A stretch of DNA of 64,000 nt from a virus (Duplodnaviria > Heunggongvirae > Uroviricota > Caudoviricetes). Positions 33,918 through 59,994 of the stretch are shown here, in pieces. The notes below the pieces were generated by a model. The model did not search any database. It was given only the letters and a program-made list of their open reading frames with translations, and had not been told where the DNA came from. Where the stretch lies: the IMG/VR virus record IMGVR_UViG_2541047712_000002. One strand, given 5' to 3'. How positions within the stretch are numbered: the first letter of the stretch is position 1; each line of letters begins with the position of its first letter. Both the position numbers and the translations under genes were made by a program.

Positions 33918-34008
33918 CTCCCCTAAAAAGTTCAGGCGTCCAGTTGGACGCCTTTTTTATCGCAATTATCTTATTAAGAAAACAATTTGTTTAAAAGGAT
34001 AAGAAAAC

Positions 34009-34434
34009 ATGACAGCTATTAAGAAACTCTACGATGCCGCAAACGTGGCTCTGGATGTTATTGATGATGAAGTAGCAAAAGGCTTTCCTGAACCTGATTG
34101 GGCGCATCAGCTACGAAACGCTATCGCAGAAATGACCCCACCAGATCCAACCCCCGACGAGACAGACTGGCAGCGATTCATCCGTATGTACGCTCAGGAA
34201 ATAGGTCCAACGCCAACGGCAGAGCAGGCAATGCTGCTGAAATACTTCAAAGAGGCGGGAGAGGATTTACCAATTGATGACTCAGCATATTGGTTCCACT
34301 GCGCATGGCGTAAGTATGACGTGATATTCACACAAGGCATGGGAAGCAAAGATATGGTTGTGTGGCATCTACTCCATATAGACACAGCCGTTGACAGAGT
34401 TATTGAACAGTTTTTCCCTAAACAAGAAGATTGA
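34009..34434 (+). CDS. hypothetical protein
   Basis: 141-aa ORF preceded by AACAATTTGTTTAAAA and AAGAAAACATG context. Confidence 0.45.
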   Translation: MTAIKKLYDAANVALDVIDDEVAKGFPEPDWAHQLRNAIAEMTPPDPTPDETDWQRFIRMYAQEIGPTPTAEQAMLLKYFKEAGEDLPIDDSAYWFHCAWRKYDVIFTQGMGSKDMVVWHLLHIDTAVDRVIEQFFPKQED

Positions 34435-45685: not shown

Positions 45686-45748
45686 GTAAGCCTTGTTTAA
45701 ACACATAAGATAACAACTTGTTTAAACACATCAAAAAAGGAAAAACAC

Positions 45749-46891
45749 ATGTCATATTCAACGTTCCGTTTGGGTGCTAATGATGCAACCAAAGAGCCTA
45801 TGTTCCTCGGACAATCTGTCAACGTGGCTCGTTACGATCAACAAAAATACCGTGATTTTGAAAAGTTGATTGAACGTCAATTGTCTTTCTTCTGGCGGCC
45901 GGAAGAAGTTGATATTTCGAGCGATCGCATCGACTTCAATACGAAGCTGCGGGACCACGAACGCCACATTTTCCTGAGTAATCTCCGTTATCAAACGTTG
46001 CTCGATTCAGTTCAGGGACGTAGCCCAAACGCAACTCTGCTGCCGCTTATCTCTATTCCTGAACTGGAAACGTGGGTTGAAACGTGGTCTTTCTCTGAGA
46101 CTATCCATAGCCGCAGCTACACCCACATTATTCGTGGCATGGTGGACGATCCGAGTATTGTTTTTGACGGTATTGTTACGGATGAAGAAATCATCAACCG
46201 AGCCATCAGTATCTCTGCTGAATATGACAGGCTTTATGGGATGACCTGCGATCGCCAGTCGTTAGGCGAGAAGGAATTTGAGCGTCTGTACGTAAATGAA
46301 TATGGCTGGGAGCCATATCCTTTGCACCGTCAGCTTTTCCGCACGTTAGTGTCCATTAATGCGCTTGAGGCGATCCGTTTCTATGTAAGTTTTGCATGTA
46401 CGTTTGCCTTTGGCGAACGGAAGTTGCTTGAGGGTAACACCAAAATTATGCGCTTTATTGCCCGTGATGAAGCTCTGCATTGCGAAGGAACTGAACGCAT
46501 GATCCGCTTCATGCGTACCGGTCGCGAAGGTTTATTGTGGAAAGAGATTGCTGCTGATGAAGAAAACGTCATTTACGACACCATGAAATCAGTCGCCGAA
46601 CAAGAAATGAACTGGGCAGACTATCTCTTCAAAGACGGTTCGATGATTGGTTTAAACGCGGATACTCTGAAGACCTATGTAAAATACCGAACCAATCTGG
46701 CTATGAATCGTCTTGGCCTGAAGGCTTTATTTCCAGAAGTTACCACTGATCCGCTGGTCTGGATGAACAAGTGGTTGTTAACCGACACACTGCAAATTGC
46801 ACCACAAGAGGCAGAGCAAAGCACATATCTGGTAGGTCAGATCGATTCTACCGTGGACAAGGCTTCTCTAAGCCAGTTTGCAGACCTGTAA
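45749..46891 (+). CDS. nrdB: ribonucleotide reductase small subunit
   Basis: 380 aa following nrdA, ferritin-like diiron pattern; AAAGGAAAAACACATG context. Confidence 0.9.
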
Positions 46892-54380: not shown

Positions 54381-54434
54381 CGTGTGCGCACGCGCGAGGA
54401 AAAAATCGGCGCGGCGCTTGATTCAGGAGTTTAT

Positions 54435-55028
54435 ATGACGACGAAGACACCAGCCCGATCGCAAGCAAAAACTCGCAAAAAAGCCAAAAACAAAAAATCT
54501 CCCCGCACCAATCCCACAACGCCTGTCGTAGAGTTCAATCCCCAGCTCAAAACCGTGAAAATCTTTAGTGATGGCTCTTGCCTTAAAAATCCGGGTGGCC
54601 CGGGCGGTTACGGTATCGTTCTCCAGTATCGTGGTGAGGAACGCGAGTTCTCAGATGGTTTTCATAGCACCACCAATAACCGCATGGAGATGATGGGCGC
54701 ACTTATCGGGCTGGAGCGTTTGAAATATCCATGCAACGTTATTTTGTACTCTGATAGCCAGTATCTGAAAAACGGCATGACACAGTGGATGAAATGGTGG
54801 AAACGTAATGGATGGATGACTTCTGATAAAAAACCGGTAAAGAATGTTGATCTGTGGAAACGTCTGGATGAGGCCGCAAGTCGACATAATGTTCGCTGGA
54901 AGTGGGTTAAAGGTCACGCCGGGCATCGTGAAAATGAAATATGTGATCGACTCGCGAAGATCGCAGCTTTTTCAGCAGCAGATATGCCTCACAAGAAAGA
55001 TATTGGTTTTGTTTATAACAAGTGGTAA
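54435..55028 (+). CDS. rnhA: ribonuclease HI with N-terminal basic extension
   Basis: [20 protein letters not shown]..., [31 protein letters not shown] match RNase HI; about 40 Lys/Arg/Thr/Pro-rich residues precede the core; start taken at ATG 54435. Confidence 0.85.
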
Positions 55029-55173: not shown

Positions 55174-55668
55174 ATGGCACGTCAAACCTATTTCACTTCT
55201 GCAACTAAACGTCCTCGTTCTTTACGTCAAATTTTGGCCGAATTGTTTAGCGGTCGTGTTATGTCACGTCTTGATGAACTAGAGACTACCGTTCGGTTGC
55301 TGAATGAACGTTTAGATAATCAAGCGTCAGTTGTTGCGAACGTGGGGGCGATTGTTGCCTCTGGTTCTTCACGCGAAGCGAAAAGTACACGGCCTTTAGT
55401 GAAGGAGAAAAACAACAAGGACAGTTCGAATGGAAAATTTTCAAAGAAAGAGGCTGAAACCAATGGCCTACGTTCTCATTATAGTTTCACTGGCGACGGT
55501 AGCCGTTCCAGCCGGCCAGAGCCTTTTGATGCCGGGTTCATCCATCACCACACCTCCGTCGACGACAATTACCACCACTCCAGTAGAGCGTCCTGTCACT
55601 CTGGATGGGATGACGGTGGATGCGATACCTCAAGTTCATCCGGTTACTCAGGATCATGCTGTGACTAA
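55174..55668 (+). CDS. hypothetical protein with Cys/His/Ser-rich C-terminal tail
   Basis: 164 aa; tail HHHTSVDDNYHHSSRASCHSGWDDGGCDTSSSSGYSGSCCD; an alternative-frame ORF 55430..55681 overlaps it. Confidence 0.35.
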   Translation: MARQTYFTSATKRPRSLRQILAELFSGRVMSRLDELETTVRLLNERLDNQASVVANVGAIVASGSSREAKSTRPLVKEKNNKDSSNGKFSKKEAETNGLRSHYSFTGDGSRSSRPEPFDAGFIHHHTSVDDNYHHSSRASCHSGWDDGGCDTSSSSGYSGSCCD

Positions 55669-55677
55669 GGCGGTTGT

Positions 55678-55866
55678 ATGAACTGGTTTTCAAATCACTT
55701 TGGAAAAATTTGGCTGGCAATTCTTGCCCTCATGGCCGCCGGTTGGGTATCGAACATTATAAAACTTGTTTGCTCTGGCGATCTCCAGTTTCAGGCTGGC
55801 ATGACCTTGGCTCGTGTAGTTGGGATTTTTGTTTTTCCAGTCGGTTCGGTACTTGGTTATTTCTGA
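55678..55866 (+). CDS. small membrane protein
   Basis: 62 aa, two hydrophobic helices. Confidence 0.35.
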   Translation: MNWFSNHFGKIWLAILALMAAGWVSNIIKLVCSGDLQFQAGMTLARVVGIFVFPVGSVLGYF

Positions 55867-55959
55867 CGGCTGTTAGTGCATATGCATTGACCATCTTTGC
55901 GTAAGCAATTTATGAAACTATAAAACAACTTGTTTTGACAAATAACAAAAGGAAAACAC

Positions 55960-56385
55960 ATGTTAGGTTTCTTCAAAAAGAAAACTCGTAAAGCAGTTAT
56001 CGAAGTCAAAAAAATGGAGAACCGTGATGCGGTTGAGGCCACCGTGTGGGGCGCGTACATGATCTCCTATGCCGACGGCACATGTGACGCAAAAGAAATT
56101 GCCATTCTTGAGAAGACAATTGCAGCTCTGCCTGCGTTTTCTCCGTTTGCTGGTGAAATTGCCCAAATGAGCGCCAATATCCGAGCTCGTTACGAAGCGT
56201 CCCCTCGTTCTGCTAATGCACAGGCTATTCGTGAGCTGTCTGATATTGCGGGTACTCCAGAGGCGGTCGATGTTCTGTGTCTGTGCCTTGATATTGCCGA
56301 TCAGGATGGCATTGGTGAACAAGAAGAGCAGGCACTGAAAAAGATCGCCCAGGCGCTTCAGTTGTCACTGGATGCTTATCTCTAA
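55960..56385 (+). CDS. TerB-like domain protein, tentative
   Basis: YMISYADGTCDAKEIAILEKTIAAL and LCLCLDIADQDGIGEQEEQALKKIAQALQL repeat pattern typical of TerB. Confidence 0.5.
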   Translation: MLGFFKKKTRKAVIEVKKMENRDAVEATVWGAYMISYADGTCDAKEIAILEKTIAALPAFSPFAGEIAQMSANIRARYEASPRSANAQAIRELSDIAGTPEAVDVLCLCLDIADQDGIGEQEEQALKKIAQALQLSLDAYL

Positions 56386-56546
56386 TGCTTGAGAGATTCC
56401 GGCTTGTGATCGTCATTGCTCTTCTGGTGATGGCGGTGTTGGTGGATTTTACGGGAAAGATGATGTCTGTCATTTCTGATGGCGTCCTCATTGGTTTGGC
56501 GATCTACTTCGCTTATCCGCTAGTCCGTAAAGCAACGTGTTAATGA
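56385..56546 (+). CDS. small membrane protein (53 aa, not in ORF track)
   Basis: TAATG overlap with the TerB-like stop; hydrophobic MLERFRLVIVIALLVMAVLV... Confidence 0.3.
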
Positions 56547-56682
56547 CAAGGGCCAAATGGCCCTTGTGTTTCGTTGACCGAAATAGAGAGTTTGCACCTT
56601 TACGTTTAGCTTGCTCCCCTTTTATGCCACATCACAATAAAGCCAATAAGAAAACAACTTGTTTAAGCATTAGGAAAAACAC

Positions 56683-57252
56683 ATGTGCAAGAAATGCAAA
56701 GCGATAGCTGATGAACAAAACGCCTTATTCGAAGAAATGGATGCTAATGAACTGGTCAAAATGTTAGCCATTCTTCGAGGAATAGAAGACGTTTCCATAT
56801 TTGAGAGAGTGGTTACAGCACTTAATTTTGAGTCCACCTTTGAAGAGCCAACTCAGGTTGTAGCTTTAGCACATCATTTCGGTGTTCATTATCTTGCTGA
56901 AAAAGAGCGCGCTGATAAGTTGCAGGCGACTTTGGATATGGTGAGCGAGACTCAACGAACTGATGACACTAACAAGAGTGAGGCGATTATTGCCAGCAAA
57001 GATCGTGAAATTGCTGGGCTTAAATCCTCTCTAACGATGTTGATGTCTGCGTTCAATCTTATGTCTTCTCAGGCGGGTTATAAAATGCCATCACTAAACA
57101 GCGATGATCCGATGGCCGTTCGTCAGCTTTTGGGAGCAATGGCCGACCAACTCGACGACACAAAGAGTCGCCTTGAAGACATGATGCGTGAGTTAAGCCA
57201 TCGACATAATCTCGCAACACAACCACACAAAGTCTTTCAAAGCTCTAATTGA
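56683..57252 (+). CDS. hypothetical protein
   Basis: 189-aa ORF with AACAACTTGTTTAAG and GGAAAAACACATG upstream context. Confidence 0.45.
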   Translation: MCKKCKAIADEQNALFEEMDANELVKMLAILRGIEDVSIFERVVTALNFESTFEEPTQVVALAHHFGVHYLAEKERADKLQATLDMVSETQRTDDTNKSEAIIASKDREIAGLKSSLTMLMSAFNLMSSQAGYKMPSLNSDDPMAVRQLLGAMADQLDDTKSRLEDMMRELSHRHNLATQPHKVFQSSN

Positions 57253-58308: not shown

Positions 58309-59994
58309 ATGAATACAGCCCTTTCCATCATCGACGATGCCAACTCAAACACTGCTATCGACTATCGGCAGGAAATGAACGTCATCCACGAAATTGTGGC
58401 CGAGTGCGAGAAAGAGATCGCCTTCATGTATCAGGTTCACGACTTCGTTTATGGCGACGAACGCCACAACATGATTAATCGCCTGCTGAGACTAAACCAT
58501 CGACCAGATGAAGATCGCTCGCGTTTAAATCGAGGTTGGTTGGATAAAGTCGATCTGGAATGGGTGAAACAGAATATTTGGGCCGAGTACTGGAGGAAGG
58601 TCACGGACATGACTAACGTTTTGCTGATCATGCCAGCTTCCCGTCGAGATGAGTGGCGCGAGCAGTTTATAGAGGGCAAACAGGAAGTCATCAAAACTGA
58701 CAGAACCGGCTACCAGATGAAGGTTAAAGAGTTCGTTGGTGTACCGGAGTTCAAAGCAGAAACGGTCATACCCACGATGCTTAATTTGCTGAATGACAGG
58801 CACAAATATCTCTCTGAGCGCGTGTATGGCTTGTTTAAGGCGCTGAGTCCTGCGCACAAGACAAATAAGACAAACGGTTTCAGCGAGCGTCTGATAATCG
58901 CTGACTGCATTTCTGATTTCTGGCGGGACAGCGTTAGCGTGAACTATCGCAAAGAGGACTACATCGACGATCTGCGTGTCTTGCTTCATTTCTTCGCGCA
59001 CAAAGAATTTATTACCATCAACCGCACTGCTGAGGTGCTATCAGCTGCGTATCGGGCAAACGACTGCCAGACCGGTGACTGGATGAACGTCGATGGAAAT
59101 CTGATGCGCGTGAAGATGTTCAAGAACGGCAACGTTCACTTTGAAATACATCCTGACGTGGCCTGGAAGTTGAATGAGGTGCTGGCTTACAGTATGCCTG
59201 CTGCAATTCCCGCGCCATGCCGAACTGCGCCAAAAACACGGGCACCAAAGCAGTTCGGGTTAATCCAGAAGACGATCTCCGTGCCGGTTCGCACTGCGCT
59301 TCGTGACGGGCGATTGAGCAAAGACAAAGGCGTATGGTACTTCTCTGATTCAGCTCTCCAGAAGTCGCAGGTGGAAGAGCTTGAGCGCACACTGAGCTTC
59401 ATTGGCGGCGTGCAGGAGAAAAAGCACTGGCAGTTCCCGTATGAGATCGGCCATACGCTAAATACGATTGTGGCTACCGGATTAATACCGGATACAAAAT
59501 CACACCAGTTCTACCCTACCCCACGCTTGATTGCTGAGTACGTTGCCAGAGCCACTGAATTGAAGTCTGGTGAGAAGCTGCTGGAGCCTCAAGCCGGACG
59601 TGGGGATCTTCTGGCCTATATCAACGCCGATCTGGAAGATGTTACCTGCATAGAAATCGCACCTCTCTTCGCTGATATCCTGCGCGGAAAAGGGTATACG
59701 AACACGATTTGCTGCGACTTCATAAAGTGGTCTGAGGACAACGTAGGTTATCAGTTCGACAAAATCGTTATGAACCCGCCGTACTCGCTTGGTCGTCATA
59801 GAGAGCACACGCTGGCTGCGCTGGGGCATCTGAAAGTCGGCGGGCGTCTTGTAGCAGTATTGCCGGGCACTGCGCCAATACTGGACTGGATGACGATGGA
59901 TAATTACGTTTATGCCAGAGGGAAGTCGTTTACCAACGAGTTTGAAGACACAGGGATCACAGTCAGCGTATACGTTTTCAAACGCGTTAAATGA
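58309..59994 (+). CDS. DNA methyltransferase (NPPY type) with large N-terminal domain of unknown function
   Basis: C-terminal motif I LLEPQAGRGDLL and motif IV VMNPPY; about 390 N-terminal residues unassigned. Confidence 0.6.
   Translation: MNTALSIIDDANSNTAIDYRQEMNVIHEIVAECEKEIAFMYQVHDFVYGDERHNMINRLLRLNHRPDEDRSRLNRGWLDKVDLEWVKQNIWAEYWRKVTDMTNVLLIMPASRRDEWREQFIEGKQEVIKTDRTGYQMKVKEFVGVPEFKAETVIPTMLNLLNDRHKYLSERVYGLFKALSPAHKTNKTNGFSERLIIADCISDFWRDSVSVNYRKEDYIDDLRVLLHFFAHKEFITINRTAEVLSAAYRANDCQTGDWMNVDGNLMRVKMFKNGNVHFEIHPDVAWKLNEVLAYSMPAAIPAPCRTAPKTRAPKQFGLIQKTISVPVRTALRDGRLSKDKGVWYFSDSALQKSQVEELERTLSFIGGVQEKKHWQFPYEIGHTLNTIVATGLIPDTKSHQFYPTPRLIAEYVARATELKSGEKLLEPQAGRGDLLAYINADLEDVTCIEIAPLFADILRGKGYTNTICCDFIKWSEDNVGYQFDKIVMNPPYSLGRHREHTLAALGHLKVGGRLVAVLPGTAPILDWMTMDNYVYARGKSFTNEFEDTGITVSVYVFKRVK

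Follow-up and report, generated by a model that had tools for sequence, protein, structure and literature searches.

The closest described relative of the locus reported here is the tciABC operon of phage P1. According to the notes in GenBank record AF234172, on which our description of the operon rests, tciA, tciB and tciC follow each other with overlaps of a single nucleotide (Table 1), and the tci names were given by homology only. A CRISPRi screen showed all three genes to be dispensable for plaque formation (PMC10695390), and the operon was lost from about half of the P1 subgroup-1 phage-plasmids (PMC9603915). The counterparts in phage P7 are designated terB/upf69.4/upf69.6. In both phages the C1-controlled ban operator/promoter lies on one side of tciAB and ban on the other; tRNA genes flank this stretch in P1.

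A second reference is the ter operon, in which terB is directly followed by terC, the gene for a membrane protein. TerB was reported to partner TerC (PMC11003894). In Y. pestis it is terCDE that confers tellurite resistance, which persists when terZAB is deleted (PMC4633105). Third, TerB domains are present in the defence systems Shango (SngA), Bunzi (BnzA) and Dionysus (DinB). There, they are encoded beside membrane proteins and were proposed to be amphitropic membrane-surveillance modules (bioRxiv 10.1101/2025.09.30.679545).

Here we analysed a 64-kb stretch of viral DNA (the window) which carries a gene pair of this kind. The 1.1 kb around the pair were 99-100% identical to E. coli plasmids of ~105-121 kb, mostly non-mobilizable, among them pLF82, which is the SSU5-like phage-plasmid Cyrano (PMC9928086). 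The initial 24 kb of the window led to the same phage-plasmids; Salmonella phage SSU5 was also matched at about 80% identity. Thus, the window represents an SSU5-type phage-plasmid of E. coli that resembles Cyrano/pLF82. The pair is placed in its accessory/DNA-metabolism region. Whereas P1 and P7 carry tciAB upstream of ban, the pair is here surrounded by genes for RNase H, a DUF4942 methyltransferase and hypothetical proteins, and it has an upstream palindrome of its own. In some database entries (e.g. P0024) over-long gene calls mis-joined the small hydrophobic protein encoded just upstream (PHROG 6006) to TciA.

Table 1. Positions of the tciA-tciB pair, its signals and its neighbours in the window, and of the tci genes in phage P1 (AF234172).
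Feature	Position	Strand	Remarks
tciA, 141-aa TerB-family protein	55960..56385	+	cytoplasmic, six helices, basic disordered N-terminus
tciB, 52-aa DUF3927 protein	56385..56543	+	predicted two-helix inner-membrane hairpin
TAATG stop/start overlap, tciA/tciB	56383..56387	+	sequence reading
Shine-Dalgarno (AGGA) of tciA	55950..55953	+	6 nt 5' of ATG; sequence reading
Palindrome AAACAACTTGTTT	55923..55935	.	24 nt 5' of tciA ATG; promoter/operator-like, function inferred
Intrinsic-terminator-like hairpin and tail	56546..56577	+	terminator scan; 3 nt past tciB stop
AAACAAyTTGTTT, all copies	893-905, 33980-33992, 45712-45723, 55923-55935, 56652-56664		upstream of + strand genes
RNase H gene	54384-55028		upstream, in the accessory region of the pair
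164-aa conserved protein, Ser/Cys/Asp-rich tail (PHROG 10411)	55174-55668		just upstream of the pair
62-aa conserved hydrophobic protein (PHROG 6006)	55678-55866		just upstream of tciA
561-aa protein	58309-59994		~1.8 kb downstream of tciB; DUF4942 domain and weak N6-adenine methyltransferase matches
P1 tciA	70233-70658		
P1 tciB	70658-70822		1-nt overlap with tciA
P1 tciC	70822-70929		1-nt overlap with tciB

In the 99-100% identical replicons the two genes carry the RefSeq/PGAP labels 'TerB family tellurite resistance protein' and 'DUF3927 family protein' and the ENA labels 'P1 TciA-like protein' and 'P1 TciB-like protein'. The DNA of the pair matched 555 of 5,426 complete E. coli genomes (~10%), in which PGAP annotates both genes. 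Because public records already annotate them, the locus, a phage P1-type tciA/tciB pair, is catalogued and named and thus neither unannotated nor new; a preliminary description had taken the small ORF for unannotated. That description had also given the peptide 53 aa and a feature end at 56546. The product actually has 52 residues (53 codons including the stop) and the gene ends three bases earlier, at 56543. We regard the identity of the two genes as homologues of tciA and tciB as virtually certain. In the window and in P1 TciA has 141 residues, with 79% identity. TciB has 52 versus 54 residues and the identity is lower, ~38-39%; the DFT...SDG...WP motifs and the overlap of one nucleotide are common to both. 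A tblastn search over the window with P1 TciC, the product of a third small membrane gene, found nothing; instead, a terminator hairpin follows tciB. The locus therefore represents the P1 tciABC operon in a two-gene form.

The preliminary description had read the 141-aa product as TerB-like and proposed an HMM search for TerB. This search matched Pfam TerB (PF05099) with 31.5 bits, above the gathering cut-off of 24.4 bits (E 2.4e-7, residues 33-136). TciA further matched PHROG 632 (E 4.8e-63), and a profile built from 13 phage homologues aligned with Klebsiella TerB of solved structure (2JXU_A) over almost its entire length (E 3.2e-19; profile 13-138, chain 19-145). The AlphaFold model (pLDDT 88.7) showed six helices preceded by a basic, disordered N-terminus. 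It was an all-helical TerB-like fold, and its top structural matches were TerB-like. Among 33 homologues D23, D39-G40, E46, E66, D95, G117 and E122 were invariant and D116 nearly so. The acidic motifs conserved in the family consist of two 'DG' turns, each with a Glu downstream, and aligned with the same motifs of 2JXU. This demonstrated that TciA is a true, soluble six-helix member of the TerB family, as had been surmised.

With the TerB of the terZABCDEF cluster for tellurite resistance, phage inhibition and colicin resistance (IncHI2 R478, Klebsiella 2JXU) TciA shares the family, the near full-length alignment and the paired acidic 'DG...E' motifs; in both cases the gene for a membrane protein follows directly. 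The pair is devoid of TerC, TerD, TerZ, TerA and TerE, and its carriers are phages, virulent ones included. TerC and TerD were not found when the 64-kb window was searched by tblastn with phage TerC and TerD, nor is either annotated beside the pair in the identical replicons. TerC is a multi-pass protein, whereas TciB consists of 52 residues with two predicted helices. With hhalign similarity between TciB and TerC was not found; the idea that TciB is a fragment of TerC was rejected because comparison with a phage TerC gave a probability of 0.1. With the TerB proteins of Shango, Bunzi and Dionysus the pair has in common that a TerB-like domain is combined with membrane proteins. Yet tciAB lacks a helicase, ATPase or pore-forming partner, and it is phage-encoded and not located in defence islands. 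In the PADLOC library neither TciA nor TciB had a match at E up to 1; Dionysus, being newer than this library, was judged by its absent partner genes only. Of three neighbouring proteins tested against PADLOC, one had weak, non-significant matches (E about 0.02). NCBIfam returned zero matches for TciA or TciB. The pair does not constitute a ter operon, and none of the PADLOC defence models fits it.

Is the small ORF a gene at all? It is short, hydrophobic ORFs arise easily by chance, and our search turned up no proteomic or ribosome-profiling support for it. One could then argue that the TerB gene alone is real and the 52 codons are a chance open frame. The data speak against this. TciB matched Pfam DUF3927 (PF13064) with 48.3 bits at a cut-off of 25 bits (E 1e-12; residues 4-51 on positions 3-50 of the 53-position model) and PHROG 1470, 'TciB-like' (E 2.8e-21). 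It is an ordinary member of this family. Across 53 distinct alleles the median dN/dS was 0.27 at a dS of about 1.45, i.e. tciB is under purifying selection. A TciB-like ORF followed TciA in 80 of 80 IMG/VR loci retrieved through TciA and, in overlapping arrangement, in 20 of 20 complete GTDB loci; it was retained at synonymous saturation with few decayed copies, and even beside TerB genes merely 30-40% identical to that of the window. Family matches, conservation and dN/dS effectively refute a chance frame, for which we see a negligible probability, and the small hydrophobic ORF of the preliminary description is real.

The hydrophobic span of TciB comprises residues 7-47. Net positive charge is found at the N-terminus and in the C-tail but not in the central, neutral DFTGK segment. 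Under the positive-inside rule TciB is therefore predicted to form a two-helix hairpin, its N- and C-terminus being cytoplasmic. Conserved motifs are DFT(G/S)(K/R) and (S/A)DG. A word-indexed protein search with TciB returned near-identical sequences only. An exhaustive phmmer search of 1.84 billion representatives yielded just 15 matches, all of 25-87 aa; therefore, informative domain fusions of TciB were absent.

The junction of the two genes reads ...CTC TAA TGC..., in which the last base of the tciA stop (56383-56385) is the first base of the tciB ATG (56385-56387). The TAATG noticed in the preliminary description was thus read correctly. P1 and P7 have the same overlap of one nucleotide, P1 with the sequence TGATG. 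Among the 80 IMG/VR loci 41 overlapped by one nucleotide (TAATG/TGATG) and 38 by four (GTGA/ATGA); one copy was disrupted. Conversely, a TciA-like ORF was present upstream in 78 of 80 loci retrieved through TciB alone. The remaining two were a locus cut by the contig end and one which keeps the last codons of tciA only. The latter, on a viral contig (L168, ~1950-2156), is a natural tciA deletion with an intact tciB and the last ~12 codons of tciA (...AQTLQLPLNQYL, then the stop).

These counts are not independent because many loci are closely related; independent lineages are provided by diverse annotated phages. Thirteen loci were examined: besides the window, twelve annotated phages were included, whose TerB homologues share 26-79% identity with that of the window. 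In nine of them (the window, P1, P7, lambdoid JLK-2012, the N4-like phages Pollock and FSL SP-076, Erwinia jumbo phage ChrisDB, Pseudomonas phage phiK7B1 and Pantoea phage LIET2) a TciB-like ORF of 52-59 aa overlaps or abuts the TerB stop. Two Pseudomonas phages have a different membrane ORF with one helix in the tciB slot, the two being mutually homologous. In the remaining two loci the slot is empty; in one of these, from a Vibrio phage, TerB has TerC and TerD as neighbours. The one-helix ORFs belong to phages AF and Holyagarpour (L013, 2432-2653; L012, 2443-2646), where a protein of 67-73 aa with a single N-terminal hydrophobic helix follows TerB. Given this different ORF, the membrane partner of TciA may be replaceable. 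Altogether, the pair is carried by temperate and strictly virulent, unrelated phages: P1-like and SSU5-like phage-plasmids, lambdoid prophages, N4-like phages and phages of Erwinia, Pseudomonas and Pantoea.

In many phages tRNA genes, mostly tRNA-Thr(tgt), are located within 2.5 kb of tciAB, usually upstream and on the same strand. This applies to P1, P7, JLK-2012, ChrisDB and 17 of 52 further loci. In SSU5-like elements tRNA genes are not close to tciAB; the window has its tRNA-Asn, Tyr and Ser at 7832-8446. With merely 17 of 52 further loci and its absence here, tRNA adjacency was rejected as a defining feature of tciAB.

We then asked how the pair is expressed. From 5' to 3' the unit consists of a palindrome which belongs to the phage-plasmid backbone, a ribosome-binding site, tciA, the TAATG junction, tciB and a terminator hairpin, i.e. 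it is self-contained. The terminator scan identified a hairpin at 56546-56567 (ACAAGGGCC-AAAT-GGCCCTTGT, then GTTTCGTT) with a 9-bp stem including six G-C pairs. This terminator-like hairpin closes the two-gene unit. Upstream of tciA a sigma-70 scan did not find a consensus promoter. The palindrome AAACAAyTTGTTT occurred five times in the window compared to 0.73 expected (Table 1), each copy 16-25 nt 5' of a ribosome-binding site and ATG of a plus-strand gene. Apart from tciA these are a 446-aa ORF at 925, a 141-aa ORF at 34009, a 380-aa ORF at 45749, the resemblance of which to the small subunit of ribonucleotide reductase is by eye only, and a 189-aa gene at 56683. The latter is the gene after tciB and has its own palindrome copy at 56652-56664. 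The copy at 33981 is immediately 3' of a terminator-like hairpin. The palindrome was upstream of tciA in 37 of 37 SSU5-like loci and in none of the 43 remaining loci retrieved through TciA, mostly contigs of 20-60 kb. Therefore, it belongs to the phage-plasmid backbone and not to the tciAB cassette. Probably it serves SSU5-like phage-plasmids as a promoter or operator.

The anti-Shine-Dalgarno duplex was calculated at -5.6 kcal/mol for tciA and at a weak -3.1 kcal/mol for tciB, with a background median of -1.9. The pair thus combines a conserved overlap with a weak ribosome-binding site of the downstream gene, as expected of coupled genes. This fits coupling by termination-reinitiation: a ribosome ending tciA would re-initiate on tciB and both proteins would be made together. 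We consider co-translation and joint function of tciA and tciB highly probable.

Are the two proteins in physical contact? For TciB as an anchor of TciA, a plausible role already put forward in the preliminary description, one can invoke the hydrophobic span with its positive ends and, from other systems, the reported partnership of TerB with TerC (PMC11003894) and the TerB domains of defence systems, which have membrane proteins encoded beside them (bioRxiv 10.1101/2025.09.30.679545). Other data were less supportive. The identities of TciA and TciB were uncorrelated (r = -0.06; 36 pairs from nine lineages, the window plus L002, L004-L009 and L011). P1 and P7 share 31% in TciA and 83% in TciB, Pollock and SP-076 37% and 77%. 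The reverse was seen for JLK-2012 and Erwinia ChrisDB (70% in TciA, 30% in TciB) and for the window and P1 (79% and ~38%). Recombination near the junction reshuffles alleles and leaves the pair intact. The uncorrelated divergence is evidence against a tightly co-evolved interface. As the genes are kept together while alleles are reshuffled, an interface would use conserved features, or the proteins cooperate without tight contact. Furthermore, with both ends inside, TciB would expose just ~6 residues of its N-terminus and 5 of its C-terminus to the cytoplasm, which leaves little surface for TciA. A natural TciA-TciB fusion (P0101; L196, 1501-2091) was encountered, a 196-aa ORF caused by insertion of a single T just before the tciA stop. 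Because this is one nucleotide in a single P1-like Logan contig, and perhaps an error of sequencing, we attach little importance to the fusion as evidence of interaction. In the structural model of the fusion the TciB part was of low confidence (pLDDT 55-79) and gave no contact information. Taken together, we give physical partnership of TciB with TciA at the membrane an even chance.

Possibly, TciB is itself the active component, a holin- or toxin-like membrane effector, and TciA its cytoplasmic regulator or antidote, the ratio of both being set by translational coupling. A peptide of 52 aa with two helices, charged ends and conserved D21 and D32 among hydrophobic helices would be compatible with this, as would the location of the pair downstream of antiterminator gene Q in lambdoid JLK-2012. 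The locus which retained tciB with tciA deleted can be cited as well; however, it also speaks against strong toxicity. Moreover, the carrier phages have their own lysis genes, the tciB knock-down in P1 was without plaque phenotype (PMC10695390), and the whole of TciB, including the loop, is under purifying selection. Hence we consider an effector role of TciB very improbable.

The name of the P1 genes and the preliminary description both imply a different function, modelled on the IncHI2 ter operon: lysogenic conversion, in which the prophage confers tellurite resistance, resistance to pore-forming colicins or inhibition of other phages on its host. This is in line with TerB homology, with the PHROG category 'moron', with a self-contained unit running from regulatory motif to terminator as in a moron, and with the TerB domains of Shango, Bunzi and Dionysus. 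The expression data do not agree. In Cyrano lysogens of LF82 grown overnight in LB the two genes, CYRAN_85 and CYRAN_86, were at the detection floor with log2(fpkm+5) of 2.32-3.18, 2.32 being zero. Their transcripts rose and fell together, with a joint rise in one condition. The pair is not among the 13 Cyrano morons expressed in lysogens (PMC9928086). In addition, the pair is common in virulent phages, which do not form lysogens, and a PADLOC match is lacking. Because TerC and TerD are absent, when resistance in Y. pestis is a matter of terCDE, and because transcripts in lysogens are near zero, tciAB is unlikely to be a tellurite-resistance determinant. Virulent carriers, the placement at the ban operator in P1 and P7 and near-zero transcripts in lysogens were counted against classic lysogenic conversion as a whole, which we rate as unlikely.

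The P1 gene name also includes 'inhibition of cell division'. TciA and TciB might perturb the divisome or the envelope during host take-over such that the infected cell stops dividing. Expression of terZAB caused filamentation in E. coli and Y. pestis, although TerB itself has not been identified as the cause of filamentation and the lethal effect was mapped to terZA (PMC4633105). In P1 a dicF-like region precedes the pair downstream of the C1-controlled ban operator/promoter. A P1vir transcriptome places tciA/B/C in one group with icd and kilA, by annotation only. Against this, neither protein resembles known division inhibitors, and our literature search found no functional experiment on TciA or TciB. 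A block of cell division appears still less likely to us than lysogenic conversion.

The explanation which we prefer overall, with belief and doubt about equally divided, is a membrane-tethered TerB unit acting in lytic growth. TciB would reside in the inner membrane with its N- and C-termini in the cytoplasm and serve as the membrane partner of TciA, comparable to the role reported of TerC for TerB. The pair would act in the lytic programme of the phage and not in the lysogen, for which its strictly virulent carriers, its position next to ban in P1 and P7 and the near-zero transcripts of Cyrano lysogens speak. There, it might guard or re-tune the inner membrane, either its ion/divalent-cation state or by exclusion of DNA of superinfecting phages; alternative targets might be pore-forming colicins or membrane-depolarising defences. 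That P1 forms plaques without the tci genes (PMC10695390) and that related phage-plasmids often lack them (PMC9603915) weighs against this explanation. We advance membrane protection or exclusion in the lytic phase as the physiological role only tentatively. The further step that TciA/TciB is a minimal module of TerB and a membrane hairpin, used for lytic exclusion of competitors or for neutralising membrane-targeting host defences, is more doubtful still.

As far as the window is concerned the finding is of little weight, both genes being routinely annotated and named since the P1 record AF234172. Yet this two-gene module is widespread across phages. If the proposal is correct, the reshuffling of TciA and TciB alleles, as between P1 and P7, would reflect an arms race on the TerB component, and the phage-borne TerB would mirror the TerB sensors of bacterial defence systems. 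A simple phage-encoded TerB protein with a partner of 52 residues would be an easy system to learn how TerB acts at the membrane.
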